Source: an uncultured Clostridia bacterium (GTDB lineage: Bacteria > Bacillota > Clostridia > Oscillospirales > Oscillospiraceae). From it: a DNA stretch of 64,000 nucleotides. The stretch covers positions 4,533 through 68,532 of the forward strand of contig CALCJW010000192.1 of NCBI GenBank assembly GCA_937967235.1. The letters are read 5' to 3'. Within the stretch, counting starts at the first letter, position 1. Every line of letters starts with the position of its first letter. Positions 33,332 through 62,561 of this stretch are shown here, piece by piece. The notes beneath the pieces are model-generated. The model ran no database searches and was not told the origin of the DNA. It was given only the letters and a program-made list of their open reading frames with translations. The position numbers were made by a program, and so were the translations under genes.

Positions 33332-34786
33332 TTACTCCTTTCCTCCTGCCTTCTTAGGCGGCTTCGCCTTGGACGGCTTGACCGGCAGACAGAGTAAAAG
33401 CACACAGTCGCCTTCATCAGGGGAAGGCAGGCCGCGTGCTTTGACGTCCTTTTTGCTCTCAATGCGGAGCTTGCTCTGCTCAGATATTCCGTATTTACGG
33501 CCTGAGAGCTGAGCTGCCAGGTCTGCATCGTCCGGCAGAATGAGCTCGACGGGCTTCTCGTGCCCTTCGTCGTCGGTCGTCTGGAGCAGCTTCTTGACGA
33601 TCGACATCATGTAGGTGGTCGTGTCGTAGTAGTAGCGGTGGCGGATGCGCTCGCCGAACTTCACGGGAATAACGGATAACCACCAGAAGCGATCAGGGTC
33701 GCCGCGCTTGATCTCGCGCAGGCGGTCGGTCACGCCGCCGCCAACGCCGCCGTCGTCGATCTTGACGGGTATCGCGGTTTCGAGGTGGTACTTGTCCACC
33801 AGGGAGCATCCAAGCAGAGCGATCTCGTGCGCTGTCCGCACGGTGTCCTGGCCTCTGATCTTTTGATGGAAGAAAACTTTCTCGTTGACCTTGTACCCAA
33901 TGATCGTCTTGTCGTCGCCGAAGCGGGCCACGTCGCAGCCGATGTGTACCGTCGGCTGTTCCGTCGGTTCCTGCCAGTCGGTCGCCATGCTCTTTTCGAT
34001 CATACTCAGCGGGATGAAGACATCCTTCTCCTGCTTCGGAAAATCACCGGCAACACGGACTCGGAACACATCGGAGTCCTCACCATACATGGTGCGGATG
34101 CGCTCGATGTACTCTTTCGACACACGGGGGCTATCCCGGTCGTCAACATGGATTGTATGGTACTGGGTTCGGTTCTTGTGGTGGCTGTCATAGAAAAAGC
34201 CGGTCAGCTGCGTGGGGTTTCCGCACATCAGCAGCCGCGCTCCCTCGGTAGACAGAGCACCCAGAACGGGCTCAAAGACTTCATCATCGACACCGCTCGC
34301 CTCGTCGATGATGAACAGCATACTCTCAGAATGGAAGCCCTGCAAGGCGTCTGGGGTGTTCGCGGTACGGGCCACAGCAAACCACTCTTCCTTCGCTCCG
34401 TTCATGTAGACGCGCTCTTGCGTCCAGGTGATCTCCCGTTGCAAGGCGGGGTTGCTGCGGAGCCACTTCGATATTTCTGCCCAGAGGATGTCGTACAGCT
34501 GGTGCTGCGTGGGAGCAGTACAGGGGATTTTGGGATATGGCCGCGTGCAGATGAACCAGATCACGGCCCACGCCTCAACCGCGCTCTTCCCGATACCATG
34601 CCCGGAACGAACGGAAGTCATGGGATATTTTGCGAGGCTGTTCAAGATCGCCTTCTGGTTGACATCAGGTTTTGCTCCGATGATGTCCTCCACGAAGTCC
34701 ACCGGATTGTCGATGTAGTATAAGATTGCGTCACTCGTCAGGCCCTTCACCGTTACGCCTCCTCTCCCATGCCTCTGCAATGACAT
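33332..34786 (-). CDS. terminase large subunit
   Basis: N-terminal ATPase with Walker A-like SGHGIGKS, followed by a nuclease region. Confidence 0.85.
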   Translation of the reverse strand: MSLQRHGRGGVTVKGLTSDAILYYIDNPVDFVEDIIGAKPDVNQKAILNSLAKYPMTSVRSGHGIGKSAVEAWAVIWFICTRPYPKIPCTAPTQHQLYDILWAEISKWLRSNPALQREITWTQERVYMNGAKEEWFAVARTANTPDALQGFHSESMLFIIDEASGVDDEVFEPVLGALSTEGARLLMCGNPTQLTGFFYDSHHKNRTQYHTIHVDDRDSPRVSKEYIERIRTMYGEDSDVFRVRVAGDFPKQEKDVFIPLSMIEKSMATDWQEPTEQPTVHIGCDVARFGDDKTIIGYKVNEKVFFHQKIRGQDTVRTAHEIALLGCSLVDKYHLETAIPVKIDDGGVGGGVTDRLREIKRGDPDRFWWLSVIPVKFGERIRHRYYYDTTTYMMSIVKKLLQTTDDEGHEKPVELILPDDADLAAQLSGRKYGISEQSKLRIESKKDVKARGLPSPDEGDCVLLLCLPVKPSKAKPPKKAGGKE

Positions 34787-35246
34787 CCACCAGAGTGCTC
34801 TCTCTGTTCTCCGCCTCGATCTTGTGCTCGGTCTCTCTCACGATCTCGGCACGGCTCTCGCGCTCCAGCTTCGTGGCCTCCCTGAGCATCGAAACAAGCA
34901 CTTTGGTGTTGATGCTCTCGGCAGGCGTCTTGGCAAGGGCCTCCAGAGCCTTCTCCTGCATTTTCAGAGCTATCCCTATATGGCGGTCATTCATCTTTCG
35001 GGCCTTTTTGACGGCCTCTGCGTGGGCTTTCCGTTGAAGGTCGGCGTCGTACTCAGCAGCACGCGCTACCCAACTGTAGGTGCTGCTCCACCTATCCATC
35101 AGCGTTTTACTCTTGCCCAACTGCTGAGCAACGGCCCGGAGGCTGCGGTCTGCCCCCAATCCAGCGTAGATCGTGAACGCCTCAAATGCCTTTGCGCTCT
35201 CGCCTTCCTGACGCTCCCACGGCTTTACGTCGCTACGCTTCGGCAT
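34731..35246 (-). CDS. terminase small subunit
   Basis: 171-aa basic HTH-like N-terminus; overlaps the TerL start. Confidence 0.65.
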   Translation of the reverse strand: MPKRSDVKPWERQEGESAKAFEAFTIYAGLGADRSLRAVAQQLGKSKTLMDRWSSTYSWVARAAEYDADLQRKAHAEAVKKARKMNDRHIGIALKMQEKALEALAKTPAESINTKVLVSMLREATKLERESRAEIVRETEHKIEAENRESTLVDVIAEAWERRRNGEGPDE

Positions 35247-35277: not shown

Positions 35278-35973
35278 TTACTTAACGGCTATCCATCCGC
35301 AGAAGTTCAGGCAACGCCAAAACATATCCACCTTATCGAAGCCAGCAGTCCGCAGCATATCGACGTTCCACTCAGGTTTCAGCGGCGACAGCACATTCTC
35401 CAGGCTGCGCCGCTTGTCCATGATCTGCTCTTCCGAGTAGCCGTTCCTGCGCTTCATGTCGTAGTACAGCTCAACCATGAGATCGTCCATGTTTTCGCTC
35501 ACGATCTTTTCCACAAAAATGAAGGCCCCGCCGGGAGTGAGGCTTTCGTAGATGGCCGAGATCATGCTCTGCCGGTATGCCGTCGGCATAAACTGGAGGG
35601 ACAGCACAGAGAGTACCAGGCTCGCCGTGTCTTTTAATGGTAAATTTTCCCAGAGGTTCCCTGCCCGGACTTCGACGCCAGGGTACTTGCTGAACCGATC
35701 TTTGCTCGCCGCGGCCATCGCCGGGGAGTTGTCGATCAGCAGAAAGTCGTTGGTGTCCTTGAACCTCTCCACAAACGGTTCAACGGCCATGCCGGTGCTG
35801 CATCCTGCATCCACGATCAGGGTGTCCGGCTGCACGAAGCGCGTACCCAGCTCATGGGAGAGGGCCCGCATGGACTGGTAGTCCGGGATGCTGCGCTCCA
35901 GCATATTTTTGAAGCAGCGGGCAACTTCGTCGTTGAACTCCCACTTTTTGCCGGGTTTCACATTATCTTTCAC
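35278..35973 (-). CDS. CmoA-like carboxy-S-adenosyl-L-methionine synthase homologue (class I methyltransferase fold)
   Basis: Blocks resemble E. coli CmoA as recalled from memory. SIPDYQSM aligns with [24 protein letters not shown] aligns with FVQPGTQVYDLGCSLG. IDNSPAM is identical. GGAFIFVEK aligns with [31 protein letters not shown] aligns with [37 protein letters not shown] aligns with FQCFNFGSLVALK. Confidence 0.65.
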   Translation of the reverse strand: [231 protein letters not shown]

Positions 35974-37535
35974 GGCGCTACCTCCTTATTCTCCGCGGGC
36001 GGCGGGAGCTTGATGCCCAGGCGGTGCTCGAACGCTTCACGCGCTCTTGCGGACAGGCCCATCTTGGTGCCGTCCGGGTACGGCAGCTCGAACTCGAAGT
36101 CAAGCGCAGCAGCCAGAGCCGCCGGGTCAACCTTCGGGTTCTCCGCCTCCAGATACCAGAATTTGCTTATGAGCTCCAGGCGGGCGATCTTTCCAAAGCA
36201 GGGGGTGAAGATTTCCCGCATTTCCGCTTCGGTGTGGCCCTTCTGCACCTTCGGATGTTCGCCCAGGTCGCCCAGAATGGTGTTGGGCTCATAGTCCAGG
36301 TCAAATGTCAGGGTCTTCTCAGCCGTGAGGAACTTCTTCTTTGTGTTCACGAACTGCGGGGCCTTATCGCTCTGGCACCAGCAGACCACCATACCGTCCC
36401 GGTAGCACAGGGCCGCCGCGATCACCGCGATCTGCTTCCGATCGGTCATGAAGGGCACGCTGTTGAACACGCTGGAGATAAACACGCTGCTGTACGGTGT
36501 GCCTGCCTCCACTTCATCCAGGAACCGGCTTGCGATCTCCAGGCTCTTTTCCTTATGGATTTTGTCGCCCATCGTCACGAAGTACGGCTCGAAGGCAGAC
36601 ACATTGATGCCGGCCTTTCTGAGCGTCCGGGTGTTGCTGAGCTTTCCCGCGCCGAAGTCAACGATGCTGGAGCCATAATGCCGCTTCCAGGCTTCCAGGG
36701 CCGCGCCCTCCAGGATGCAGAAGTCACGCCCGTTGTTCTTCGGGAAAACGCCCTTGAAAAATCCATCGCCCAGGGCTGCATTGCCCGCGGCATCGGTTTC
36801 TCTTGTGTTCCGCTCCCGCATGAAGCTGTTGAAGCGGAGATCATCTGCATAGTTGGACTCCATGTCAAAATCCATAGACAGCAGATTCAGCATTGCCGAC
36901 GCGAAGGCTTCCTGTTCCTTCTTGATCTGGACGCAGGGAACGACCTTCCGGCTTGCCTCTGCTGCCGTCTGGAGGCGACCGATGCCGTTTATGACGTTGC
37001 CCTCCTCACCGATCACGATCGGCATGAAGGCTCTGATCTTCCGTTCCAGGGATTTTGCGAGCTGCTTTGTGTGGGCGTCGAAATTGCGGTGGTTCGCCTT
37101 TGCGAGCTTCACGGTGTCCATCCGGCGCAGCGCATAAACGCAAGGGTAGGATTCCGGGCTGCCCGGTTCGATGTCGGGCAGGGCCTCCGTCATGGCCTGG
37201 ATGTCCATTTCGTACAGACGCTTCTTGACGATCGCGCAGGTGTCCTGCTTCTGGAGGTCGTTCGTGGCCCGGTTGAACAGGACGTTGACTGCCTTCCGCT
37301 CGCCGAGCTCTTTTTCGCTGACGTACTCCACAGGGATTTCAGGGAAGCCCATGCGACGGGCGACGAGCTGCCGCTGGTGTCCGCTCAGAATTTCGCCGTG
37401 CTCGTCCGCGTAGATGGGCAGCAGGAAGCCGAGCTTGCGCAGGGACAGCTCCGCCAGGGCCAGACGCTTTTCGTCATTCCGGCGGGGGTTATACTCTGAC
37501 GCCTTCACAGCGTCGATAGGAACCAGCTTAATCAT
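35970..37535 (-). CDS. ParB/Srx-like N-terminal domain fused to a putative SAM-dependent methyltransferase-fold domain
   Basis: N-terminus LVPIDAVKASEYNPRRNDEKRL...LSGHQR is ParB-N. The C-terminal half has a GxGxG motif (IVDFGAGKLS), an acidic residue after beta2 (SAFEP) and a degenerate motif IV-like FNSVPF about 60 aa later. Confidence 0.55.
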   Translation of the reverse strand: MIKLVPIDAVKASEYNPRRNDEKRLALAELSLRKLGFLLPIYADEHGEILSGHQRQLVARRMGFPEIPVEYVSEKELGERKAVNVLFNRATNDLQKQDTCAIVKKRLYEMDIQAMTEALPDIEPGSPESYPCVYALRRMDTVKLAKANHRNFDAHTKQLAKSLERKIRAFMPIVIGEEGNVINGIGRLQTAAEASRKVVPCVQIKKEQEAFASAMLNLLSMDFDMESNYADDLRFNSFMRERNTRETDAAGNAALGDGFFKGVFPKNNGRDFCILEGAALEAWKRHYGSSIVDFGAGKLSNTRTLRKAGINVSAFEPYFVTMGDKIHKEKSLEIASRFLDEVEAGTPYSSVFISSVFNSVPFMTDRKQIAVIAAALCYRDGMVVCWCQSDKAPQFVNTKKKFLTAEKTLTFDLDYEPNTILGDLGEHPKVQKGHTEAEMREIFTPCFGKIARLELISKFWYLEAENPKVDPAALAAALDFEFELPYPDGTKMGLSARAREAFEHRLGIKLPPPAENKEVAP

Positions 37536-38211
37536 TGTGCAGCAGCCTCCGTTTCAGCTCCTCCGCGATCTCTGCGCGGTCGAAAATACCTTTGTCCCGG
37601 ATGCCGTCCAGGGTGCGGTTATAGCGGACGACCTCGACCTTGAAATGGAGGTGTCCAACTCTCACCAGGGTGGAGCCCAGGGCGGGCACGTCGTCCGCGT
37701 CCGCATCCGGCTCCTCGTCCGGCTCTTCTTCGGCGTCTTCTTCCTCCAGGTCTTCCAGGTCGTCGGGCTCTTCCTGTTCTCCGACGTCCGGCTCCTGAAC
37801 ATCTTCAAGCTGCCGGTACAGACGTACCTCGTCAGCATCAAAGCCGGTTTCGTAGTCCAGCACATCGTCGTCCCGCAGCAGATCGCCCAGGGCGTCATTA
37901 TCCCAGCGGCCTTCAATGCGGTTCAGGGACAGGCACAGCTTCTTTTCCTTCTCCTCGTCGGGCTGGTCGATGATGGAGCAGAGCACTTCTTCCACGCCCA
38001 TGTCACGCAGCACGGTGATTCTCTGGTTGCCGCCGATGCAGCGCATATTGTGGATGTTCACCACAGGCGGCTCAACCATGCCGTGCTGCTCCAGGCTCCG
38101 GCGCAGGGCTTCGTACTCGTCGCTGCCCTTCACGATGTCCTCGCGGGGGTTGTACGGGGGAGGCACAATGTCCTTCAACTTCAAAACCCGGAACTCGGTC
38201 TTAAATTTCAT
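37528..38211 (-). CDS. ParB/Srx-like N-terminal domain protein with an acidic C-terminus
   Basis: KDIVPPPYNPRED...IGGNQR; paralogous to its neighbours. Confidence 0.55.
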   Translation of the reverse strand: MKFKTEFRVLKLKDIVPPPYNPREDIVKGSDEYEALRRSLEQHGMVEPPVVNIHNMRCIGGNQRITVLRDMGVEEVLCSIIDQPDEEKEKKLCLSLNRIEGRWDNDALGDLLRDDDVLDYETGFDADEVRLYRQLEDVQEPDVGEQEEPDDLEDLEEEDAEEEPDEEPDADADDVPALGSTLVRVGHLHFKVEVVRYNRTLDGIRDKGIFDRAEIAEELKRRLLHND

Positions 38212-38809
38212 CGAACATCCTCCTTCTCAGCTCCTCGCACACAAGCTCCTGCGTAAAGCCGACCTTCTCGCGGACGTCCGCCATCAGGTCTTCAAACTCA
38301 ACCTCGGTGAGCTTGAAGGAAAATTCACCGACCAGGCACTTGATGCCGTCTGTGGCGTCTTCCTTCTTGTCCTTCAGCTCCGGCTCGTCACCGTCCAGCT
38401 CGTCGCCGATCTCACCCAGGAGCTCGTCGATGTCCTTCTGCGTAAAGCCGGTAGATGCAAGGTTCTCCTGCTCCTCGATCAAGTCCTGGAGGAGTTCTGC
38501 CAGCTTGCCGTAGTCCCAATCGCCGTCCAGCTTGTTCAGGGCGATGCACAGGGCCTTTGCCTGAGCCTCGTCCATGTCCACGACCACCGCATTGGTTTCG
38601 GTTTCGCCTTCCGCCAGCAGGACGCTGAGTCGCTGGTGTCCACCGATCAGGCAGTTGTCCCGGAGGTTCACGATCAGAGGCAGAACCAGGCCGTGCTCTT
38701 CGATGCTCGCGTCCAGGGCCTTGTATTCCTGATCTTTCGCCGTCAGCTCGACCCTGGGATTGTACGGGGCCGGTTTGATCTCCGACAGCTTAACAATTTT
38801 CGTTTCCAC
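38201..38809 (-). CDS. ParB/Srx-like N-terminal domain protein
   Basis: LSEIKPAPYNPRVE...IGGHQR. GTG start with AAAGGAG 7 nt upstream. Confidence 0.5.
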   Translation of the reverse strand: METKIVKLSEIKPAPYNPRVELTAKDQEYKALDASIEEHGLVLPLIVNLRDNCLIGGHQRLSVLLAEGETETNAVVVDMDEAQAKALCIALNKLDGDWDYGKLAELLQDLIEEQENLASTGFTQKDIDELLGEIGDELDGDEPELKDKKEDATDGIKCLVGEFSFKLTEVEFEDLMADVREKVGFTQELVCEELRRRMFDEI

Positions 38810-38882
38810 GCCTTTACTCCTTTTCTGTAAATTTTGCATGAAAAAAGCGGGGTGCTTTCGCACTCCGCTTTTCGTTGCCTAT

Positions 38883-39371
38883 TCAGAACATTTTCAGTTG
38901 GAAGCATTCGGGCTCCTGAGCCATCACCGGCTGCGGGGTCAGACGCTTCTTCATGAACATATCGTAGGGAGCAGCCTCGATGCCGTAGCGTTTGTACATC
39001 GTCCGCGTCTTAGGGTTGCTCTCCACGGCGTAGTAGTGGGCTCCCTTCGGGCCGTCCTGCTCACCATGCTTGGGGAAAATCCAGTTTTTGAGGGCACGTT
39101 CCTTGAACACCGGCGGCTCACCGTTGATGTCATTGAAGTACCATTCATCCGGCTGCCAGCCGGTCTTCTTCTTGATGTTCTCCATCGTCTGCCGCATCTG
39201 ATAGTCCGGGCGGGCTGTCACGATGATAACGTAATCGTCGCGGATAGCCTCGATCAGATCAGCGCGGTACTCCTCCGCGGCCATACGGCGGGTGAAGGGG
39301 CGAAGCAGCCGGGTGTCTGCCTGGTTGCCAACGAGGGTGTAGTTCAGGTCGAGCAAGCAAATATTTTTCAT
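38883..39371 (-). CDS. HAD-like fold protein (putative phosphatase; catalytic DxD is degenerate as DLN)
   Basis: MKNICLLDLNYTLV...YVIIVTARP resembles HAD motifs I and II. Confidence 0.35.
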   Translation of the reverse strand: MKNICLLDLNYTLVGNQADTRLLRPFTRRMAAEEYRADLIEAIRDDYVIIVTARPDYQMRQTMENIKKKTGWQPDEWYFNDINGEPPVFKERALKNWIFPKHGEQDGPKGAHYYAVESNPKTRTMYKRYGIEAAPYDMFMKKRLTPQPVMAQEPECFQLKMF

Positions 39372-39530
39372 GGTTAGTTATCTCCTTTACATTGCTTCTG
39401 TAATAATTATACCACTTTTTTCACGTTCTGTCATAGGTTTTTGAAAAGATGGTGCATATTTTTTCAGCAATGAAGGGAGTCAACCGCCTGTCCACACTCT
39501 TTCATTGTGGAAGAGTATACCACAGATAAA

Positions 39531-39573
39531 TTGCACCTGTCCATTGCACAATTTTTGCACCGGCAAATTGCAC
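39531..39573. promoter_or_regulatory. four direct TTGCAC repeats (spacings 14/10/13 bp) immediately downstream of the ArpU-like gene and upstream of the late operon
   Basis: Read directly: TTGCAC at 39531, 39545, 39555 and 39568. Confidence 0.45.
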
Positions 39574-39577
39574 GCCC

Positions 39578-40084
39578 TTATCTGAGGGCGTCCGCGCCGT
39601 AGAGCCACACCGCAAGCCGCTGTACAAGCCGTTTTCGGTTCCTCCAGACGGTCGAGGTGTCGCACGGAATGAGCTTTGCAACGTCCTCGTCTGGAAGGTT
39701 GTCGATGTACCGCCCAACGACGGTCTGATAATAGGCGTCGTCCTGAATGACCTCCAGGGCCCGCTCCATCGTATTGATCTCGTGCTCGTCCGCTGCGATC
39801 GTAGCCTGCATATCAGTCAGCACCGCTTCCCAGATTTCCTCTGGGGTAAGCCGCACGCCGGTCTTGATAAAACGGGTAATGCTCTTGCTGCGCTCCTTCG
39901 GCCCGTACTTCAAGAACTCCTCCAGCTTGTCCTTGTCCTCGGCTTGCTTCTGGAGTAGGGTCGGTAGGGCGTAAAGACGGCGTTCGGTCGCCTTGAACGC
40001 ATCCTTCGCGGTGTGCCCTGCTGATACGCGACCAGCCTGCACGGCCTCTACGATGATCGCCCGAATATCCTCTGCTTTGTTCAT
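39578..40084 (-). CDS. ArpU/RinA-like late transcriptional activator (sigma region-4-like HTH)
   Basis: C-terminal LIPCDTSTVWRNRKRLVQRLAV; positioned upstream of the packaging module. Confidence 0.6.
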   Translation of the reverse strand: MNKAEDIRAIIVEAVQAGRVSAGHTAKDAFKATERRLYALPTLLQKQAEDKDKLEEFLKYGPKERSKSITRFIKTGVRLTPEEIWEAVLTDMQATIAADEHEINTMERALEVIQDDAYYQTVVGRYIDNLPDEDVAKLIPCDTSTVWRNRKRLVQRLAVWLYGADALR

Positions 40085-43711: not shown

Positions 43712-44246
43712 TCTCGTTCGCCTCCTTTATCACCCATACCTTGTGTTTTCCGTAGCCAGACCAGGCCAGCGCGTCCTCGTGCGTGCCGGACACGGCCACG
43801 TCCAGGTGCTTGCCCTGGATGCCAGAGCCCTTATCCTGCACCACGCGGACTCCGACGCCCTCGATGTAGAGCACCGTCCCGAACGGGAAGATCGACTGAT
43901 CGGCGGCGACGGTCTGATCTGGAGTAAAGGGAGCACCACTTGCCGTGATGCCTTTCCCCTCCCCGCAGATGTGCGGGTACTTCTCGCCGCAATACGCGGT
44001 ACACTCGAACTCTCCAGCGTCTATGAGCTCCAGGCCATCCGGCAGCACGATCTCTGCTTCATCGGCGGCTTTCTGCAAGTCCTCGATCGTCTGTTCGTCC
44101 CGCATGGCCCGCGTCTGCCAGTTCTCCAGGCGGCTCCTGTTGATGATCTGCTGGCCCTCCAGGTCGTCAATGCGGGCATCCTTCAAGCTGAGCTGTGCGC
44201 AGTTGACAGCCTCCAGGACGATCAGCAGGCCCAGGATAGCCTTCAT
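43698..44246 (-). CDS. secreted 3D-domain (MltA/RlpA-like) protein
   Basis: Signal peptide MKAILGLLIVLEA; TAYCGE...GTVLYIEGVGVRVVQDKGSGIQGKHLDVA is a 3D domain. Confidence 0.6.
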   Translation of the reverse strand: MKAILGLLIVLEAVNCAQLSLKDARIDDLEGQQIINRSRLENWQTRAMRDEQTIEDLQKAADEAEIVLPDGLELIDAGEFECTAYCGEKYPHICGEGKGITASGAPFTPDQTVAADQSIFPFGTVLYIEGVGVRVVQDKGSGIQGKHLDVAVSGTHEDALAWSGYGKHKVWVIKEANENDGE

Positions 44247-45082
44247 TCTCCATCCCATTCAGCCACCGCCTTTTTGTCTGCCAGGTCGATGCCCTCCGGG
44301 CACTCCCTGAGCAACTGATCTCCCCAAACGCCTTTGAGGTTGTCCTTCATGAACACCGGCACGCCCGCGGTCTTCGCATCGGTCACGATCGACTCTACCC
44401 ACTCCCGCTTCGGCTGGTGAGCCTTGCTGCCAGGGCCCGTCATGGCACCGATGATGCACCAGCCCACCTTCTTGACGGCCTGAGCACCGACGCCCTCGAA
44501 GGGCTGGAGCAGCGGCTCCATGCTGACGAAGGTGTTGTGGTAGTCACTCCACCAGAAAGAATCCTCCGGGCCGGTGATCGTCGAACCGTACCAGAAGTTC
44601 GGCTCCTCCGGCAAAATGCCCTTCCGGGCCAGCTCCATATACCGGCTCGGATTCTTCGTCAGGAACAGGTAGACGTGCTGCGGGGCCTCTTTGCAAGCCT
44701 CCAGCACTTCGGCGATCCACTCGTCCGGCACCCAGTCGCCGAACAGATCGGCCATGCTGCACACGAACACCACAGACGGAATCAGCCGCTTCCGCGGGTA
44801 GTCCATCATGTAGCGGTGGAACGTGGGCAGGAAGCCCATCGGGTAGGGCGTGCTCCGAATGTACTTGCCGGACTCGTCCAGCAGCTTCACCGGTTTCTCG
44901 GACACGAAACATCCTGCTGCGCCCTTCGCCTCGCTCAACTGCTCGTCGGGCCACTCGCACGGGTGCGGCGCAAAACGGTCGATGAACCGGCGGGCATAAC
45001 AATAGCTGCATCCGTTCCGGCAGCCCGTCACCGGGTTCCAGGTGTGAGTACACCACTCGATCTTACTCTTGTGCAGATTCAT
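44243..45082 (-). CDS. phage Gp37/Gp68 family protein (DUF5131)
   Basis: MNLHKSKIEWCTHTWNPVTGCRNGCSYCYA. Confidence 0.65.
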   Translation of the reverse strand: MNLHKSKIEWCTHTWNPVTGCRNGCSYCYARRFIDRFAPHPCEWPDEQLSEAKGAAGCFVSEKPVKLLDESGKYIRSTPYPMGFLPTFHRYMMDYPRKRLIPSVVFVCSMADLFGDWVPDEWIAEVLEACKEAPQHVYLFLTKNPSRYMELARKGILPEEPNFWYGSTITGPEDSFWWSDYHNTFVSMEPLLQPFEGVGAQAVKKVGWCIIGAMTGPGSKAHQPKREWVESIVTDAKTAGVPVFMKDNLKGVWGDQLLRECPEGIDLADKKAVAEWDGE

Positions 45083-45374
45083 GGTTAGTTTCCTTTCCTG
45101 CCGCTTCCGCGCTGTCTTCCGAGTCCCGGAAGATGTCAGCCGCGGGCTGAACGGCAAACTTCTCTTTTGCGGGGGTCTTGGCGGCTTCCGCCTCGGCTTC
45201 CATGTCGAAGAGGCTGTACTGCTTCTCCATAAACTGCCGGTATTCCTCTTCCTCCCGCATCTTCTTCAAGCAGCAGGGCCCGTACCCATCCCGCAAGCCC
45301 TGTTCGCTTGTCAGGATGCCGCCGCACCTCTTGCAGCGGCGGGCCGGTACATTGAAAATGACGCCATCGCTCAT
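45063..45374 (-). CDS. hypothetical Cys-containing protein
   Basis: RRCKRCGG...GPCC. Confidence 0.4.
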   Translation of the reverse strand: MSDGVIFNVPARRCKRCGGILTSEQGLRDGYGPCCLKKMREEEEYRQFMEKQYSLFDMEAEAEAAKTPAKEKFAVQPAADIFRDSEDSAEAAGKETNHESAQE

Positions 45375-45553: not shown

Positions 45554-45917
45554 TTGGGCCTCCGTTCTCCGGCACGATCTTCCTCAGCGTGAGTGTGACC
45601 TCGCTGCCGTCGCCGGTCACCCACTTGTACTCCATGCTGTCCACGCCGTCGATTTCCCGGATTGCCAGGAAATAGTCGCGGACAGCCTCGACCGCCTCAG
45701 TTGTAACGCGATCTCTGTCTTTCCATTCGCCCTTGCTGTTGGTGATGCCGGCATAAATGCCGCCAATCCCAGCACTCACATGAAACCCAGGCATTTTGAC
45801 GTCCTCCTCCGCCCAGCTCGACGCCTCCAGGCAGTCGATTACAAACCAGACCAGCAAGCCGCAGATTACAGCAGCAGCCACCGGCACAACAATTTTGAAA
45901 AAGATGGTCTCGATCAT
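45543..45917 (-). CDS. small membrane protein
   Basis: Start MIETIFFKIVVPVAAAVICGLLVWFV. Confidence 0.4.
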   Translation of the reverse strand: MIETIFFKIVVPVAAAVICGLLVWFVIDCLEASSWAEEDVKMPGFHVSAGIGGIYAGITNSKGEWKDRDRVTTEAVEAVRDYFLAIREIDGVDSMEYKWVTGDGSEVTLTLRKIVPENGGPNAE

Positions 45918-45933
45918 GTTCCGCCTTTCTTTG

Positions 45934-46495
45934 TCACTCCGGCGGCAGCTCGTCGCCCCAAGCGTCCCATCCAGTCGCTCGCTGCCTCGCAAAAAGCTCG
46001 ATTCTGGGTACGTCGCCCATCAAGGTTACGATGCGCTTCCGAACCTCGTCCGGCTTTACGCTGTGCGCCTGTATCGGTTCCTCGACAATTTGATGCACGG
46101 CATGGCTCTTGATCTGCTCTTTTGCCTTGAAGTCTGGTGTGATACCGAGCAGGCAAACCTCCGCGTTGGCGCGGGTATATGCTCCCATGCCCCAAAACGG
46201 GGTACCGCTCTTGCGGTTTTTCTTCACCCAGACGAAAGCTGCCGTCTTGTACTCGAACCCCCATGCCCGCATCACGCGTAGCGCATCCGGGATAGTCGGG
46301 AAGGTTGCCCACATAAACAAGGCGCAGCCCCCCCCCCGCAAGCCTCTGAACCGGAAGTGCGCAGATGTCCTCAACCGCCATCGTGTGATAGTGCTGCACC
46401 GCGTTCCCGCGGCTCTTCGGGCCCGTCCCGCACTGGCGGTACGACCACGGCGGGTCAGCATAGATAACGGAATAGGTCTTGTCAGGAAGATTCAT
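45934..46495 (-). pseudogene. MT-A70 family N6-adenine DNA methyltransferase, frameshifted at a C10 (coding-strand G10) tract; phase-variable or assembly error
   Basis: N-terminus MNLPDKTYSVIYADPPWSY...HYHTMAVEDICALPVQRLAGGG is in one frame. The rest, ALFMWATFPTIPDALRVMRAWGFEY...ARQRATGWDAWGDE, is in the -1 frame. The junction falls exactly on the homopolymer at 46328..46337. Confidence 0.7.
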
Positions 46496-49018: not shown

Positions 49019-52000
49019 TCATTCCATCGTAACCGTACTTCCGTTTTCTCCGCCAGTGACGATGATGTTCTGCGAGAACCGTGCCTTCATGGTCGGGTCG
49101 TGCGAGATCGCCAAAATGCGCATACCGGGGTTTCGGGTCGCCATGTTGGACAGGGCGTCCGCGTAGGCGTCCGTGCCGTCTGCATCCAAGAACGGCGGCT
49201 CGTCGATGAACAGCATACCGAGCTGAACACCGGCGCGGCGGGCCTTCACGTCCGCAAGGCCCAGTGTGACGGCCAGGGCGATCTTGACCTTCTCGCCTCC
49301 GCTGTGGCTCTGGTACGGGCGGGTGCCGCCGGTGATCGTGTTAATCCAGACCTCCAGGCTGTTCACGATCTGCTTCGTGGACTTCTGCTCGCGCTCGGTA
49401 CGGAAGTCCACCGCCATCCTGCCGCCGGTCATGGATGCAAGGATGTCGTTACTCTGCCGCATGATCTCCGGCACGACGCCGCGAATAATCATGTATTGGA
49501 TGCCGTCGATGCCGAACGCCTGAACCAGCGTGGTGTAGTCGTTCAGCTTCTCCGCGATCTCGGTCAGCTCAGAGCGAAGCTGGGTGATCTGCTCGGTCGC
49601 CTCGTCGATCATCTGGAGCTTTGCCTTGATCTCGCCGCGGCGGAGGATGCAGCACGACACAATGTCATTTGCGGGTGCAAGCCTCCTCTGGATGCTCTGC
49701 CATGCGTCGTAGGGTACGGGCTTGATGCGCTCCCGGATGGAATATGCCTCCAGGTGGGCCGCGGCGCTCTGGCCGTTCAACTCCTCAATCTCCCGGTTGA
49801 GCCGGTCGATCTGAGGTTTCAGGGCCTCCATTTTGGCGGCAGCAGCTTCACAAGCGGCCAGACGGTCGGCCATCCGCTCGTTGTCCTCGATCTGCTTATG
49901 TGCCGCGTTGTACCGCTCGACCACATTCTGCATGGACTTTATCTGGCCGTTGAGCTCGGCTGCTTTCTGGAGCGCAGCGGCCTCCCGATCGGTGGCCGCC
50001 TGGATGTCGGCCTCGACCTTCTGGAGCGATGCTTCCGCAGCCGCAAGCCGCGGAGCAAGATCGGCGAGGAGCCGCAGCGTTTCTTCTTCGGCGGCCAGGT
50101 GCAGCAGCTCGGTTGCCGGGTCGCCCAGGGCCTCGTCCGCTGTCTTGGCGTCGTTGTACGCTTTCAGTAGCTTCTCATACTGGGCCTTGCGGTCTGCCTT
50201 GGTCTGCGCCAACTCCTGCTCCAGAGCGGGAATAGACCGCTTCGCGTTGGTGGCGGAGATCAAGAACTTACACGTTGCGGTGTCCGGGTTCGGACAGCCG
50301 CTCCCCTCCAGGCGGGCAGCCTCTTTGCGCAGGGCTTCCAGGTTGCTTTCCATGCCGCGGATAGTCACCCGGCTTTCTGCCAGGTGCGCGTCAACCGCAG
50401 CCTTCGCATCGCGGGCGGCCTGCGCGGTCTTTTTCTGCTCCAGCACGCGGGTCTGGACTTCCTTTCTCCGGGATGCCAGGGATTCAAGACTGGCTTGCGC
50501 CGCCTCGATCTCAGCCTTTCTCTTGACCGTTCCCTCGTACTCGCACCGGTAGGCCGTGAGCTCACCGATGGTGTCGTGGGCAGCCTGCGCGTCGCTCTGC
50601 GCAGTCTTCATGTCGTGGAGGATAGCCGTCAGCTCATTCATCTTCGGGGTGAGCTCCTGGAGCTCAGAACGGGCGGCCTTGACGAGCTGGGCGGCGGTGC
50701 GAGCCATGTCCAGGCGGGCGCCGTCGGCGGCTGCCGCGTCGTACTCGCTCTGGAGCCTCACTCCCTCGTCGGCCTTCTGGTTGCGCTTCCGGGTACACTC
50801 CGCGGCCTGGGAGTCCTTTTCATCGGCCTGCTTCTTGATCTCGGCGGCCAGAGCCTCGGCCTGTTCGAGAGCCTTCTGCTCCTGCTCCGCCTCCGCGATC
50901 GTCCGCTTGGCCTCTTCGATCTTCTCCACCTTGGCCGCGTCCTCGATCATGAGGTCTTCGCGCTTCTCGACCTGTTCAGTCAGGACGTCGATGCGGTCTT
51001 TGGTCGCCGCGATCTTCCTGCGCTGCTCTTTGGCTGCGTCCTTGGCGATTTCCTCCATGCGGGAGTAGACGCCCAGGCCCAGCAGCGAGCTCAGAACCTC
51101 CATGCGCCGGTCGCTATCCGCGTCCAGGAACAGGCCGTAGGCATCCTGCCGAATGAGGGCGATCGAACAGAATGTATCGCAGTCCATACCCAGCAGCCGC
51201 TCGATCTTCGCCTGAGTCAGCTTCATGGTGGTGTCGCTCTCGTCCGCCCAGGAACCAGCTTCCGGGTCGAGCCGCTGGAGAGCCAGCGTGCCGCGTCCGC
51301 TCTTCGTGCGGGTGCGGATAACGCGGTACTCCTGGCCGCCCATGCCGAAGGTGAATGTGATCGCGCCGCTCTTCGTACCGTCGCGCACCCAGCCGCCGAT
51401 GTCCTCTTTGCGGGTGTGCTCATAGAGGCAGTCGGCGATCGCGTCCATGAACAGGGACGACTTGCCGACGCCGTTCTGACCGTTTACCATAGCCATGCGC
51501 ACCGGCCCAAAATCAAACTCAGCCTCCGTATAGCTGCGGTAGTTCTTGACCTCGATCTTGTGCGGGATGAAGGCTCCCGTGTGCTTCCCGTCGTCCCGGC
51601 CATCGTCCGCTTTCTTGATGATCGGTTCCGCCAGGACTTTGAGCCGGTCGGCCTTGTCGCCGGTGATGTCGTTGTGCTCCAGCCAGCGGCCCAGGGCCTC
51701 AAACGGGCCGTCGTGTTCAGTGAGCTGGTCTTTCGAGTCCAGCTCCTCCACGTCCTCCGGGACGATCTCGGCGACGTAGAACGCACCGTCGGCAGTCAAC
51801 GCCTTCTGGATGTCGGCCCGGTTCAGAGCCTTTTCCTGCTCTGCCGTGCAGGAATAGCGCACCCGGATGATCTTATCCCTTACGAGCTCCCCAAAGCTGA
51901 CGCTCTGAGGGTCTGCAATGAACTGGGCCACGGTGTCCGGCGAGAGCCGCAACGTCAGGTGTTCGCGCTCCGGCAGGCCGATGAAGCCGGACGCGACGGC

Positions 52001-52816
52001 GTTGCCGCCCATCATCGGCTGCAAGGTGTGGAGCCAAAAACCATGCTCCGTGCCCTCGTCGTTGAAATTCAACTGGTTCACGCTGCCGCAGTAATAGGCC
52101 GGAGTTTCGCTGGCAAGACGCTGGGGCTTGTGGATGTGTCCGAAACAGGCAAGGTCAACGCCTGCCGCGTCGATCGTGGAGGGCAGAATCACCACGTCCT
52201 GTCCCGCCAGGAAGGTACTGCCGTTGTCCGCCTCGCTGCCGCTCACGGTGTAGTGGGCGGTCATGACAGCCGGGATGCTGTGATCGAGCTGCGTTGCAAG
52301 GCCCAGAATCGTGTCGTTTATGAGGGCTGTCGCGTTGCGGTTCTCCTCCTCCTTGTCCATGCCAGGGTAGAACAGGCGCAGGCGGGCTTTATCGAAACCA
52401 GGAACAGCCATGATCTGCACCGGGCCTTCCTTGGTGTCCAGCTTCTCGACCGCGGGCGTGGTGTAGATGTGCAGATTGCTCAGGTTCTCGGTCGCCTTCT
52501 TAATGAGCTCGAAGGCACGGGGGTTGTCATGGTTCATGGTGCCGAACAGCAGCACCACCTCGTCGCTGCACCCGCACAGCGGAATGACGAACTTCTCCAG
52601 GGCGTCGTTTACGTCGTCCAGAGCGGTGTCAGCCCAAACGCGGGAGCGGTTGAACAGATCGCCAGCGATGATCGAAACCTCCGGCTTGATGCTCTGCGCA
52701 TCCTCCACGATAGCTTTCATGCAGCCGATCGTGTCCAGGCGGCGGAGGTTTTCGCCGTCTTTTGTGGGGCCTGCCAGGTCGCCCAGGTGGATGTCACCGG
52801 TATGCAGTATCCTCAT
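49019..52816 (-). CDS. fused SbcD(Mre11)-SbcC(Rad50)-like nuclease/ATPase
   Basis: N-terminal calcineurin-like phosphoesterase MRILHTGDIHLG...GDLFN...GNHD. Then an ~900-aa AAA_23/SMC-like coiled-coil ATPase. AGGAGG RBS. Confidence 0.75.
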   Translation of the reverse strand: MRILHTGDIHLGDLAGPTKDGENLRRLDTIGCMKAIVEDAQSIKPEVSIIAGDLFNRSRVWADTALDDVNDALEKFVIPLCGCSDEVVLLFGTMNHDNPRAFELIKKATENLSNLHIYTTPAVEKLDTKEGPVQIMAVPGFDKARLRLFYPGMDKEEENRNATALINDTILGLATQLDHSIPAVMTAHYTVSGSEADNGSTFLAGQDVVILPSTIDAAGVDLACFGHIHKPQRLASETPAYYCGSVNQLNFNDEGTEHGFWLHTLQPMMGGNAVASGFIGLPEREHLTLRLSPDTVAQFIADPQSVSFGELVRDKIIRVRYSCTAEQEKALNRADIQKALTADGAFYVAEIVPEDVEELDSKDQLTEHDGPFEALGRWLEHNDITGDKADRLKVLAEPIIKKADDGRDDGKHTGAFIPHKIEVKNYRSYTEAEFDFGPVRMAMVNGQNGVGKSSLFMDAIADCLYEHTRKEDIGGWVRDGTKSGAITFTFGMGGQEYRVIRTRTKSGRGTLALQRLDPEAGSWADESDTTMKLTQAKIERLLGMDCDTFCSIALIRQDAYGLFLDADSDRRMEVLSSLLGLGVYSRMEEIAKDAAKEQRRKIAATKDRIDVLTEQVEKREDLMIEDAAKVEKIEEAKRTIAEAEQEQKALEQAEALAAEIKKQADEKDSQAAECTRKRNQKADEGVRLQSEYDAAAADGARLDMARTAAQLVKAARSELQELTPKMNELTAILHDMKTAQSDAQAAHDTIGELTAYRCEYEGTVKRKAEIEAAQASLESLASRRKEVQTRVLEQKKTAQAARDAKAAVDAHLAESRVTIRGMESNLEALRKEAARLEGSGCPNPDTATCKFLISATNAKRSIPALEQELAQTKADRKAQYEKLLKAYNDAKTADEALGDPATELLHLAAEEETLRLLADLAPRLAAAEASLQKVEADIQAATDREAAALQKAAELNGQIKSMQNVVERYNAAHKQIEDNERMADRLAACEAAAAKMEALKPQIDRLNREIEELNGQSAAAHLEAYSIRERIKPVPYDAWQSIQRRLAPANDIVSCCILRRGEIKAKLQMIDEATEQITQLRSELTEIAEKLNDYTTLVQAFGIDGIQYMIIRGVVPEIMRQSNDILASMTGGRMAVDFRTEREQKSTKQIVNSLEVWINTITGGTRPYQSHSGGEKVKIALAVTLGLADVKARRAGVQLGMLFIDEPPFLDADGTDAYADALSNMATRNPGMRILAISHDPTMKARFSQNIIVTGGENGSTVTME

Positions 52817-53847
52817 TTTCTGCCTCCTCTTGCCTTGCGCTGGCACTCGTTACACAGGATGCGTCCGAAAACCCTCTGACTGTACCCTGCAATGTCGTCC
52901 GGCGTCCAAACCGCGCCGTTCCGGGTATTTACTGCCGTGATCTCTTTGTGGCAGTCTGCGCAGTAGATACCGGGCTGCGGCTGCTGACGCGGTGCGGGAG
53001 GCTCCTCGTAGTAGGGCTCCTGCCAACCGGTGTCCGGCTCCTCGTAGTCCTCCGGCGGAGGCGGGGCCTCGTAGCCCTCGTCCTCGTAAGGCGGAACCTC
53101 TTCGGCCTGCTGAGCCGGAGGAAGGGCTGCCGGGGCCGGTGCTGCCGGAGTCTCGAACAAGAGGCCCATACTCTGCAAATAGCTCCCGGCCACGGCCTGC
53201 TTGATCTCCGGCGCATCCAGATTCGGAACGACGCGGGCCACGATGAATGGCTTTTTCAGATCGGGGAGCTTGTATGTACCGGCCAGCCCCAGGGCGGCGC
53301 GGATAGCACGCATGAATGCTTTGCTCTCCGCCATCGCGGTGCGGTGCGGCAGGAACCTCCTGTACTGCTGCCCGGTTGCGCCGTCCTTCATGGAGGCGGC
53401 CTCCAGGGCGCAGTCGATCTCTTTCGTGGCCTTCATCAGCCGGAAGCCGCCGGACGGTTCAGGCACGCGGATGGTGACGGTAACGGCGACGTCGTGGACG
53501 TGCTCGCAGTTGCCGCATACTCTGGGCTTGCCAGAGGCGCGGGCCATTTCGATGCACCGCTGGCAGCCTTCCGTTCTGCCTGGGGTCGTGTCCACGATGC
53601 TGATATTCGCGGCAGCGGCCAGCTTCATGCCGCCCACCTTCGTGATCGCAAACGCGCCGCTGGACTTTTCAAAATAGATGTCCTTGCTGGGTCCGCGGTT
53701 CGTGTTGTCCTGCCTGGTGTCCAGCTGCACCTCGGAAACGACGATGCGCTGGAGGTTGGACGCCGCCTGCATCGTAGTGACCGGCACCAGGACGTTATAC
53801 TGATCTGTCGGGTATTTGTTGAGTTGGAGTACGCTCTCGTAGTTCAT
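52813..53847 (-). CDS. hypothetical DNA-metabolism protein with a C-terminal zinc ribbon and Pro/Glu-rich linker
   Basis: CADCHKE...CNECQRK. No confident family assignment; it did not resemble RecT or ERF on inspection. Confidence 0.45.
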   Translation of the reverse strand: MNYESVLQLNKYPTDQYNVLVPVTTMQAASNLQRIVVSEVQLDTRQDNTNRGPSKDIYFEKSSGAFAITKVGGMKLAAAANISIVDTTPGRTEGCQRCIEMARASGKPRVCGNCEHVHDVAVTVTIRVPEPSGGFRLMKATKEIDCALEAASMKDGATGQQYRRFLPHRTAMAESKAFMRAIRAALGLAGTYKLPDLKKPFIVARVVPNLDAPEIKQAVAGSYLQSMGLLFETPAAPAPAALPPAQQAEEVPPYEDEGYEAPPPPEDYEEPDTGWQEPYYEEPPAPRQQPQPGIYCADCHKEITAVNTRNGAVWTPDDIAGYSQRVFGRILCNECQRKARGGRK

Positions 53848-61475: not shown

Positions 61476-62561
61476 ATGATTCTGGCAGAATACAGGGAGG
61501 TGAGCGTTATTCCTGCGTACAAAGACAAGGAACGGGGTACATGGTACGCCTCGTTTTACTACACCGATTGGCAGGGCCACCGAAAGCTGAAAAAGAAACG
61601 GGGCTTTGCTCGGCAGAAGGACGCGAAGGCGTTCGAGGACGAATTTTTGAAGACCAGGGCCCAGAGCTGCGACATGACGTTCGGCTCGATGGTGGAGCTG
61701 TACCTGGACGACATGGAGCACAGGTTGAAGGCGAACACGATGCGCAACAAGCGGTATCTGTACAAAGCCCGCATCTTACCCTTCTTCCAGGACTTGAAGA
61801 TCAATGACATCACACCGGCCCACGTCCGCAAGTGGCAGAGCAATCTGCTCGCCGAGGGCGTCGCTCCCACCTATGCGAAGACGATCAACAACCAGCTATC
61901 CGCCGTGTTCAACTACGCCTGCCAGTATTACGGCCTTGCCCGGAACCCCGCGAAGGTGGCAGGCAGCATCGGCAAAGAGAACGCGGATGAAATGAAGTTC
62001 TGGACGGTGGACGAGTTCACGAAGGTTGTCGAGAACGTGCCGAAGCTCCCAGGCAGAACCGGCCTGTCCGTTCTGTTCTGGACGGGCCTGCGCATCGGTG
62101 AGCTGCTGGCCCTGACTCCGGCAGACATCAACCTGGAGGACTGCACGCTCTCGGTCAACAAGAGCTTCCAGACGATCGACGGCGAAGAGGTCGTGACAGA
62201 GCCGAAGACGCCGAAGAGCCGCCGTGTGCTGCCCATCCCGCCGAAGCTGGCCGATATGCTCAGGGTGTATCTGAACGCCCTGTACAAGCCTGACCCTGCC
62301 GATCGGCTGTTTCCCTTCACCAAGCACTACTTCCGCCAGCAGATGCAGAAGGGATGCAAAGCGGCCGGCATCGAGCCCATCCGCCTGCACGATCTCCGAC
62401 ACTCTCACGCTGCCCTGCTTATCCACCTGGGGACTCCGATCTTGATGGTGAGCGAGAGGCTGGGCCATGAGGACGTCGAAACGACGCTGCGGACATACGG
62501 GCATTTGTACCCGTCGGCGACGTCGGATGCGGTGAAAAAACTGAATGATTTGATGCGGTAA
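61476..62561 (+). CDS. int: tyrosine recombinase / phage integrase
   Basis: C-terminal RLHDLRHSHAALLIHLGTPILMVSERLGHEDVETTLRTYGHLY carries the R...HxxR...Y catalytic signature. The exact start codon is uncertain; the RBS is nearer an internal GTG. Confidence 0.85.
   Translation: MILAEYREVSVIPAYKDKERGTWYASFYYTDWQGHRKLKKKRGFARQKDAKAFEDEFLKTRAQSCDMTFGSMVELYLDDMEHRLKANTMRNKRYLYKARILPFFQDLKINDITPAHVRKWQSNLLAEGVAPTYAKTINNQLSAVFNYACQYYGLARNPAKVAGSIGKENADEMKFWTVDEFTKVVENVPKLPGRTGLSVLFWTGLRIGELLALTPADINLEDCTLSVNKSFQTIDGEEVVTEPKTPKSRRVLPIPPKLADMLRVYLNALYKPDPADRLFPFTKHYFRQQMQKGCKAAGIEPIRLHDLRHSHAALLIHLGTPILMVSERLGHEDVETTLRTYGHLYPSATSDAVKKLNDLMR

Follow-up and report, generated by a model that had tools for sequence, protein, structure and literature searches.

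The late region of a prophage from an uncultured Clostridia bacterium (contig CALCJW010000192.1 of assembly GCA_937967235.1; the whole 64,000-nucleotide (nt) stretch that was analysed is called the window) carries an operon in which a gene for a 231-amino-acid (aa) protein of the CmoA family, the carboxy-S-adenosylmethionine (carboxy-SAM or Cx-SAM) synthases, lies directly downstream of a gene for a 521-aa protein that joins two ParB-N domains to a class I S-adenosylmethionine (SAM)-dependent transferase domain. Two stand-alone ParB-N paralogues and a 162-aa protein complete this module. We read it, with moderate confidence, as a phage-encoded Cx-SAM-dependent modification system that differs from the published CmoA/CmoX system, a reading built on family membership, fold, conservation of catalytic-type residues, near-obligate gene linkage and translational coupling, all of them observed directly.

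The module was first picked out in an original prediction made by a model from the sequence of the window alone, which held that a Cx-SAM synthase is not expected in a phage and was aware of no description of such a system. The first point no longer stands: phage CmoA, together with CmoX (5-carboxymethylcytosine) and CmoY (glycine amide), was published for Synechococcus phage S-B43 in December 2025 (Nat Commun; PMC12783734), and CmoA homologues are present in 84 phage records. Because of that publication the second point is outdated at the level of the concept. In the literature searched, no paper dealt with ParB-ParB-class I transferases or with such an enzyme paired with CmoA, and nothing was found on a non-CmoX Cx-SAM DNA transferase, on N6- or N4-carboxymethyl bases in phage, or on DNA modification in Samunavirus. 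The published survey covered CmoX-containing contigs only and noted ParB-domain neighbours without explaining them, and according to its authors no candidate for an adenine-N6 or cytosine-N4 carboxymethyltransferase turned up in association with CmoA (PMC12783734).

Linkage of the CmoA-like and 521-aa genes

The five open reading frames (ORFs) form a co-directional block between a sigma-like regulator and the terminase genes, as originally described, and the coordinates, strand and motifs that had been quoted for them were all correct. In the order in which they are read, they are:

38883-39371, minus strand: 162-aa protein; 19-nt gap to the next gene
38201-38863, minus strand: stand-alone ParB-N paralogue, 220 aa; 11-nt overlap with the next gene
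37528-38211, minus strand: second stand-alone ParB-N paralogue, 227 aa; 8-nt overlap with the next gene
35970-37535, minus strand: 521-aa protein; stop codon overlaps the start of the CmoA-like gene
35278-35973, minus strand: CmoA-like protein, 231 aa; 31-nt gap to the terminase small subunit gene (TerS)

Genes of the operon are spaced by 19-31 nt or overlap by 4-11 nt, and no terminator-like site interrupts the coding strand of the block. The 521-aa and CmoA-like genes are translationally coupled: the GTG start codon of the CmoA-like gene overlaps the TGA stop codon of the 521-aa gene (GTGA), and an AAGGAGG ribosome-binding site precedes the start.

A pattern scan of IMG/VR gave 450 loci with a relative of the 521-aa protein, and the best 79 of these, many closely related to one another, were examined; they represent 15 lineages at 70% identity and 7 at 50%. 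The CmoA-like gene is directly downstream of the 521-aa homologue in 78 of the 79 loci, the remaining locus ending at the gene boundary, and no 521-family gene in the sample was without a CmoA-like neighbour. One or two stand-alone ParB-N genes precede the 521-aa homologue in most loci (68 of 73 that are informative), and the 162-aa gene was present in 71/79, upstream in close relatives and between both enzymes in distant ones. The core pair also occurs in three unrelated lineages of cultured phages, namely Gordonia phage Evaa, twelve Pseudomonas phage records (SM1, PaMx31 and relatives; Samunavirus) and Aeromonas phage HJ05. Carriers of the module are phages of three host phyla, and a single-protein genome scan added four close chromosomal relatives, from Pseudoflavonifractor, Flavonifractor and Clostridiaceae. 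In Evaa, the order is gp1 (ParB), gp2, gp4 ("phosphatase"), gp5 and then the terminase; the module is directly upstream of the terminase large subunit gene (TerL) in Evaa, SM1 and HJ05, the three that were inspected, and in many of the IMG/VR loci. Among 50,697 phage records, the 162-aa family was found only in Evaa, itself a module carrier; around the module of SM1 and HJ05 there is no 162-aa gene.

These observations support a functional tie between the CmoA-like and 521-aa proteins, and they support the view that the ParB paralogues and the 162-aa gene belong to the block and are conserved with it. Where the 521-aa proteins are about 45% identical, the identity of the CmoA partner ranges from 28 to 50% and its score on the TIGR00740 (CmoA) profile from 68 to 179 bits; CmoA subtypes have been exchanged between lineages and do not follow the phylogeny of the 521-aa protein, which suggests that the product of the synthase matters rather than a specific protein contact.

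Two minor observations concern the same loci. In L024, L026, L027, L029, L030, L042-L044, L048 and others, the tblastn match to the 521-aa protein runs some 600 nt further upstream, where the adjacent stand-alone ParB-N paralogue resembles the first domain of the enzyme enough to join the match; this is consistent with a recent common origin of the fused ParB-N domains and the free paralogues. Five metagenomic proteins (P0092, P0182, P0190, P0201 and P0020) join an N-terminal ParB/521-type part to a truncated CmoA-like part at varying breakpoints, with an identical junction at LERSIPDY in two of them. We rejected these as "Rosetta-stone" evidence of linkage, since they are chimeras that miss parts of both proteins and look like deletion or read-through derivatives or assembly chimeras, not designed fusions.

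Families and folds of the module proteins

Judged by its sequence, the 231-aa protein belongs to the CmoA lineage and not to a generic methyltransferase family, and it is a predicted carboxy-SAM synthase (SAM + prephenate to Cx-SAM + phenylpyruvate). Its best NCBIfam profile is TIGR00740 (CmoA, carboxy-SAM synthase; E 8.5e-49, 166.4 bits), more than 130 bits ahead of the runner-up unrelated family, BioC (32 bits). The structure of E. coli CmoA, 4GEK, matches it end to end over residues 10-231 (E 1.1e-37), and the next structural family comprises cystargolide/belactosin O-methyltransferases (9FCD and relatives, E 5e-13); within PHROGs, it is a member of phrog_4752 (E 4e-81). The originally noted likeness to CmoA therefore holds, with an identical IDNSPAM block and the NGYSE...KR..LENV region present. 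The SAM-motif residues D62, G64 and G68 are kept, as are both K198 and R199 of the E. coli enzyme, the latter lying in the region singled out for checking. Among 65 module-associated CmoA homologues, K198 is 100% conserved, and R143, K165, K185 and the N-terminal W18/F20/S35/P37/Y39 segment (W-x-F...S-x-P-x-Y) are at least 90% conserved. TIGR00740 was the top match for every module-associated homologue tested (68-179 bits), with the next families at no more than 32-49 bits.

For the 521-aa protein, an AlphaFold2 model was built from a 91-sequence alignment (mean predicted local distance difference test score (pLDDT), 95.6; predicted template modelling score (pTM), 0.92). The domains are:

37251-37535, minus strand: first ParB-N domain, residues 1-95; YNPR and SGHQR motifs; Pfam ParB_N E 2e-4; pLDDT >90
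36861-37163, minus strand: second, duplicated ParB-N-like domain, residues 125-225; NGxGR motif; invariant G184 and R187
35973-36845, minus strand: orphan class I SAM-dependent transferase domain, residues 231-521; candidate Cx-SAM-using carboxymethyltransferase

The original description of this protein as a ParB-N::Rossmann fusion was right as to the class I fold and the IVDFGAGKLS and FNSVPF sequences, and wrong in counting one ParB-N domain where there are two in tandem. Residues N16, P17, R18, S51, G52 and R55 of the first domain are invariant, and Noc/Spo0J/ParB structures match the family profile at E 7e-9. The two domains align with each other in hhalign (probability 98%, E 1e-13), and the protein aligns over two stretches to phrog_620 and phrog_498. 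The C-terminal domain has the features that define a class I Rossmann transferase: a seven-strand fold, a glycine-rich motif I (D293-F-G-A-G297) and an acidic residue, E316, after beta2. The loop after beta4 reads N358-S-V-P-F362 and is followed by D365-R366; R234 is also conserved. Across the family, no variation is seen in the glycines of motif I, in D293 or E316, or in the loop after beta4, and R234 and R366 are 99% conserved. By analogy with K91/R315 of CmoB (PMC4482062) and R350 of CmoX (PMC12783734), which are partners of the Cx-SAM carboxylate, R234 and R366 are speculative candidates for the same role.

ParB_N was the sole family reported by a Pfam scan of the 521-aa protein; sequence profiles of the C-terminal domain gave weak matches to Methyltransf_23 and UbiG, and a BFVD viral structure search gave no informative full-length match. 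Neither profile nor fold searches detected a specific likeness of the transferase domain to CmoB, C5-methyltransferases or DNA amino-methyltransferases, and the suggestion that the protein acts like CmoB is accordingly reduced to an analogy of role. FNSVPF, which had been taken for a degenerate motif IV, does not align clearly with (D/N/S)PP(Y/F/W); its N-S-V-P-F aligns with the L-E-H-V-P motif found in UbiG and other small-molecule methyltransferases. With 294 clusters (50% identity) in a set of 1.84 billion representatives, the domain family is a small one, and its architecture of about 500 aa is nearly constant. Several 90%-identity protein clusters hold >1,500 member sequences each. Its PHROGs entry is phrog_5475, function unknown, and in the annotated phage records inspected its genes are labelled "hypothetical protein", "tail fiber protein" or "ParB-N-terminal-like domain methyltransferase", labels which are evidently generic or mistaken.

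The two extra ParB-N paralogues of the original prediction were recovered as strong phrog_620 matches below the Pfam ParB_N cut-off of 26.3 bits: the 220-aa paralogue at E 5e-47 with 25.1 bits (and E 2.5e-9 on the Noc profile), the 227-aa paralogue at E 3e-40 with 19.9 bits. In both, an acidic linker joins a ParB-N domain to a small C-terminal domain, and neither has a DNA-binding domain that could be recognised; their box II motif is GG(H/N)QR, not GERRxRA.

The 162-aa protein, previously called HAD-like, belongs to phrog_32036 (E 4e-87), function unknown. HAD phosphatases are recognised by motifs I DxDx(T/V), II (S/T), III (K) and IV (an acidic pair) and by a significant profile match. Here the residues D8, T12, T52-A-R-P, K90 and E117-S-N are invariant in the family, and motif I is D8-L-N10-Y-T12 (DxNxT), with Asn in place of the second Asp. 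The motifs, faint NIF/LNS2 matches (E >= 0.03) and the names "phosphatase" and "Polynucleotide kinase 3 phosphatase" given to relatives by other annotators speak for the earlier label, whereas the family had no PDB match and no significant match among Pfam and PDB profiles; the protein possibly has a HAD/polynucleotide-3'-phosphatase-like fold with an atypical first motif.

Proposed reaction and rival explanations

The cmo5U/CmoB pathway is known from Gram-negative bacteria, and cmoA and cmoB are presumably absent from the host. The C5-methyltransferase catalytic motifs PCQ and SPPC occur in no real ORF of the window, Pfam scans gave no DNA_methylase match for the module proteins or the other ORFs scanned, and scans of 18 selected window ORFs revealed no other recognisable methyltransferase. 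Because the window has no other recognisable consumer of Cx-SAM, and because a CmoA-family enzyme alone modifies nothing, a synthase-transferase pair is the simplest reading. On this scheme, the 231-aa enzyme would, as its family membership implies, convert SAM and prephenate into carboxy-SAM, and the transferase domain of the 521-aa protein would be the dedicated consumer, moving the carboxymethyl group to a nucleic acid. The most probable substrate is phage DNA, which would be modified once it has been replicated, at about the time when it is packaged. The two fused ParB-N domains and the one or two free paralogues would load the enzyme onto DNA, hold it there or activate it; both the consumer and the ParB-loading steps are based on gene linkage, domain architecture and analogy, and for the free paralogues we infer a helper role. 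The 162-aa protein, if HAD/3'-phosphatase-like, might speculatively contribute an accessory or tailoring reaction that some lineages can do without. The likely benefit would be to shield virion DNA from host restriction.

DNA is probably the acceptor, by analogy, because ParB-N is the usual fusion partner of phage DNA methyltransferases (phrog_498; PMC12783734), because ParB-like proteins activate phage DNA thymine dioxygenases (PMC13229309), and because the module adjoins packaging genes, with the terminase following it immediately in four phage groups that are unrelated. Its nearest counterpart is the CmoA/CmoX/CmoY system, which likewise sets a phage gene of the Cx-SAM synthase family beside a dedicated SAM-fold transferase, often with ParB-N proteins nearby, and has the same presumed purpose of DNA modification against restriction. 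Unlike that system, the window has neither a C5-cytosine methyltransferase homologue (SPPC/PCQ) nor an AMP-forming amide ligase (CmoY); the partner is instead a class I transferase that is not related to CmoX and carries two ParB-N domains, and a possibly phosphatase-like accessory protein is added. The proposed two-enzyme logic, a Cx-SAM synthase working with a Cx-SAM-selective class I transferase, is shared with CmoA/CmoB (tRNA cmo5U34), TglE/TglF and MccS/MccB (PMC4482062, PMC10491745). The 521-aa transferase domain nevertheless has no specific sequence or fold similarity to CmoB, whose K91/Y200/R315 triad cannot be mapped onto it, and both the ParB-N fusion and the terminase-side position of the module point away from tRNA.

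Fusions of ParB-N with DNA methyltransferases (phrog_498; CDD ParB_N_like_MT) have the same order of an N-terminal ParB-N and a SAM-fold domain, have stand-alone ParB-N paralogues nearby and often lie near packaging genes. The 521-aa protein differs from the phrog_498 fusions in a catalytic domain that is not of the N6_N4_Mtase/DPPY type, in its duplicated ParB-N domain and in its obligate linkage to a CmoA-like gene. The ParB-dependent phage thymine dioxygenases (5mYOX plus a ParB activator; PMC13229309, PNAS 2026) offer another parallel, with ParB-like genes beside a post-replicative DNA-modifying enzyme; the 5mYOX-associated ParB and the window paralogues appear to have in common a nucleotide-binding domain and a small C-terminal domain, no obvious DNA-binding domain, and a frequent position near the terminase. 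Here, however, the enzyme is a SAM-fold transferase rather than an iron/2-oxoglutarate (Fe/2OG) dioxygenase, and it has fused ParB-N domains as well.

Several points weigh against a Cx-SAM-dependent modification of phage DNA. That the 521-aa protein uses Cx-SAM is something we infer from linkage only, and the position of R234 and R366 at the cofactor site is a predicted placement only. The closest structural neighbours of the transferase domain, METTL6, Trm9, CcbJ, GNMT and UbiG, act on small molecules or tRNA, not DNA; the (D/N/S)PP(Y/F/W) and PCQ motifs of DNA methyltransferases are absent from it; and ParB-N domains also bind nucleotides such as CTP, so that a nucleotide or another ligand is a possible target. 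The role of the 162-aa protein in the module is speculative. On the side of the synthase, the 231-aa protein is under the equivalog cut-offs of both TIGR00740 (166.4 versus 193.3 bits) and PRK15451 (135.6 versus 285), and the most divergent module partners, at 68-105 bits on TIGR00740, may have changed function. The sub-threshold score is no argument against activity, because the homologue of cyanophage S-CRM01, whose gene adjoins a DNA-cytosine methyltransferase gene in the validated CmoA/CmoX arrangement, scores only 119 bits, below the window protein; Cx-SAM production was shown experimentally for the S-B43 enzyme of this arrangement (PMC12783734). R199 is not kept universally, and because the cyanophage homologue of the CmoA/CmoX arrangement has Glu there, this residue, to whose region the original prediction had pointed for the check, is not a reliable discriminator of CmoA.

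Since the catalytic domain resembles enzymes that act on tRNA and small molecules (METTL6, Trm9, CcbJ and GNMT among them), the leading rival is that the pair uses Cx-SAM on an acceptor other than DNA. Candidates are a nucleotide bound in the ParB/Srx-type domains (for example CTP or dCTP, processed by the 162-aa phosphatase-like protein), tRNA or another RNA, and a packaging protein. CTP is bound and hydrolysed by ParB-N folds (PMC13229309), the phosphatase-like protein is co-conserved, a DNA-methyltransferase catalytic motif is missing from the 521-aa protein, and the lytic Samunavirus carriers encode a dCTP deaminase nearby. Even so, we consider a non-DNA acceptor unlikely: the close IMG/VR relatives are in prophage-like, terminase-side loci, no nucleotide-metabolism gene was recognised among the selected window ORFs scanned, SM1 and HJ05 manage with no 162-aa gene near the module, and elsewhere ParB-N, whether fused or as a separate partner, goes with enzymes whose substrate is polymeric DNA.

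It is also improbable that the two enzymes have separate functions, the 521-aa protein being an ordinary SAM-dependent (DNA) methyltransferase while the CmoA-like enzyme drains SAM or makes Cx-SAM against SAM-dependent host defences. The canonical SAM-binding motif I and acidic motif II of the transferase domain would fit such an enzyme, plain-SAM ParB-N::methyltransferase fusions are common (phrog_498), and SAM depletion by phage CmoA has been raised as a possibility (PMC12783734). Separate functions, however, would not lead one to expect neighbouring genes in 78 of 79 loci, across 15 lineages and three host phyla, nor the translational coupling, nor the lack, in the sample, of any 521-family gene that stands apart from a CmoA-like neighbour; in other phages, too, CmoA homologues have a transferase of their own, CmoX (PMC12783734). 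Least convincing is the idea that the CmoA-like protein has diverged into a methyltransferase, with the module comprising two sequential methyltransferases, or a methyltransferase and a regulator, for one substrate: the low scores (166 bits against a cut-off of 193, and partners down to 68), the loss of about 40 C-terminal residues in some partners and the small-molecule O-methyltransferases as next-nearest solved relatives (9FCD family, E 5e-13) would suit it, but CmoA always leads the other families by far, the window protein outscores the cyanophage homologue of the CmoA/CmoX arrangement, and the basic and aromatic residues in common with E. coli CmoA are conserved throughout. Drift to a plain methyltransferase is possible for the most divergent partners and unlikely for the window protein.

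Within the preferred reading of a Cx-SAM-dependent modification system, we advance only tentatively, as a possibility, the narrower claim that the 521-aa family is a previously unrecognised class of DNA carboxymethyltransferase, ParB-loaded and Cx-SAM-using, that makes a mark other than 5-carboxymethylcytosine. Such a mark could sit, for example, on a purine or pyrimidine nitrogen, either exocyclic or in the ring, and the 162-aa enzyme might tailor it further. Before December 2025 there was no demonstration of Cx-SAM-dependent modification of phage DNA, and the one now available concerns one type of transferase, the C5-cytosine methyltransferase homologue CmoX; the module is a concrete and strongly linked candidate for a CmoA-associated DNA carboxymethyltransferase of another kind. 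The carriers Evaa, SM1, PaMx31 and HJ05 are cultured and easily grown, which opens the prediction to direct nucleoside mass spectrometry. If it is true, a so far undescribed DNA modification would be widespread in prophages of gut Clostridia and would also be present in cultured phages of Gordonia, Pseudomonas and Aeromonas. The natural DNA modifications would then gain a member, DNA labelling could draw on a new Cx-SAM-selective scaffold, and ParB-fold proteins would be seen for a second time as partners of DNA-modifying enzymes.

Surroundings of the operon and related loci

The prophage occupies about 55 kb of the window on the minus strand, with an integrase at 61476-62561 and host genes bordering both ends. 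Downstream of the CmoA-like gene, the order is TerS, TerL and portal. The features flanking the operon are:

34731-35246 (TerS) and 33332-34786 (TerL), minus strand: terminase genes directly downstream of the CmoA-like gene; Pfam Terminase_6N and Terminase_3 (sub-threshold)
39578-40084, minus strand: sigma-70 region-4-like regulator; TIGR02937 E 2e-4 (sub-threshold), phrog_36 "transcriptional regulator" E 9e-11
39406-39543, minus strand: two sigma-70-like promoter matches in the 206-nt gap (39372-39577) upstream of the operon; consensus matches only

The stronger promoter match, ATGACA-17-TATAAT with an extended -10 element (TG), agrees with the consensus at 11 of 12 positions and lies about 100 nt downstream of the weaker, TGGACA-18-TATACT (10/12). 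Three copies of GTGCAA(A/T)(A/T) at 39529-39573 (minus strand) and a fourth, GTGCAATGG, all fall within about 45 nt and overlap the TGGACA-18-TATACT match. The count of the GTGCAA motif over the entire window is not above chance, and the local clustering alone is notable; the cluster may be an operator or activator site of the late operon.

Far from the module, a 193-aa ORF at 45914-46495 (minus strand) opens with an MT-A70/Dam-like DPPW motif (YSVIYADPPWSY) and has no Pfam match at E <= 0.001; from this motif, it may be a truncated or frameshifted N6-adenine methyltransferase of the early region. Near it, at 44243-45157 (minus strand), is the gene of a DUF5131 (phage Gp37/Gp68) protein (Pfam E 1e-38) with the CxxxCxxC-type motif GCRNGCSYCYA. 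A 1275-aa ORF at 49019-52846 (minus strand) combines an SbcD/Mre11-like metallophosphoesterase with an SbcC/SMC-like ATPase, which are usually two separate proteins.

CmoA-like genes were also seen in other settings. The closest cultured-phage CmoA-like protein, at 45% identity, is that of Alcaligenes phage Afa-NA1 (PV550095.1, 57473-68192). No 521-family homologue occurs anywhere in this phage record, and no C5-methyltransferase is annotated in the inspected 10.7-kb stretch; a 162-aa ORF near the CmoA-like gene was considered as a counterpart of the window 162-aa protein and rejected as unrelated. A 439-aa Dam-like "DNA adenine methylase" (DPPY) is encoded 2.5 kb from the CmoA-like gene, beside NUDIX and dTMP-kinase genes, and may be another type of Cx-SAM consumer. 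In jumbo Erwinia/Dickeya phages (Erwinia phage vB_EamM_Y3, NC_047880.1, 12641-15232), a CmoA homologue 43-45% identical to the window protein has an asparagine-synthase-like gene and the gene of a 2OG-Fe(II) oxygenase immediately after it, which is a CmoY-like tailoring context with an extra oxygenase.

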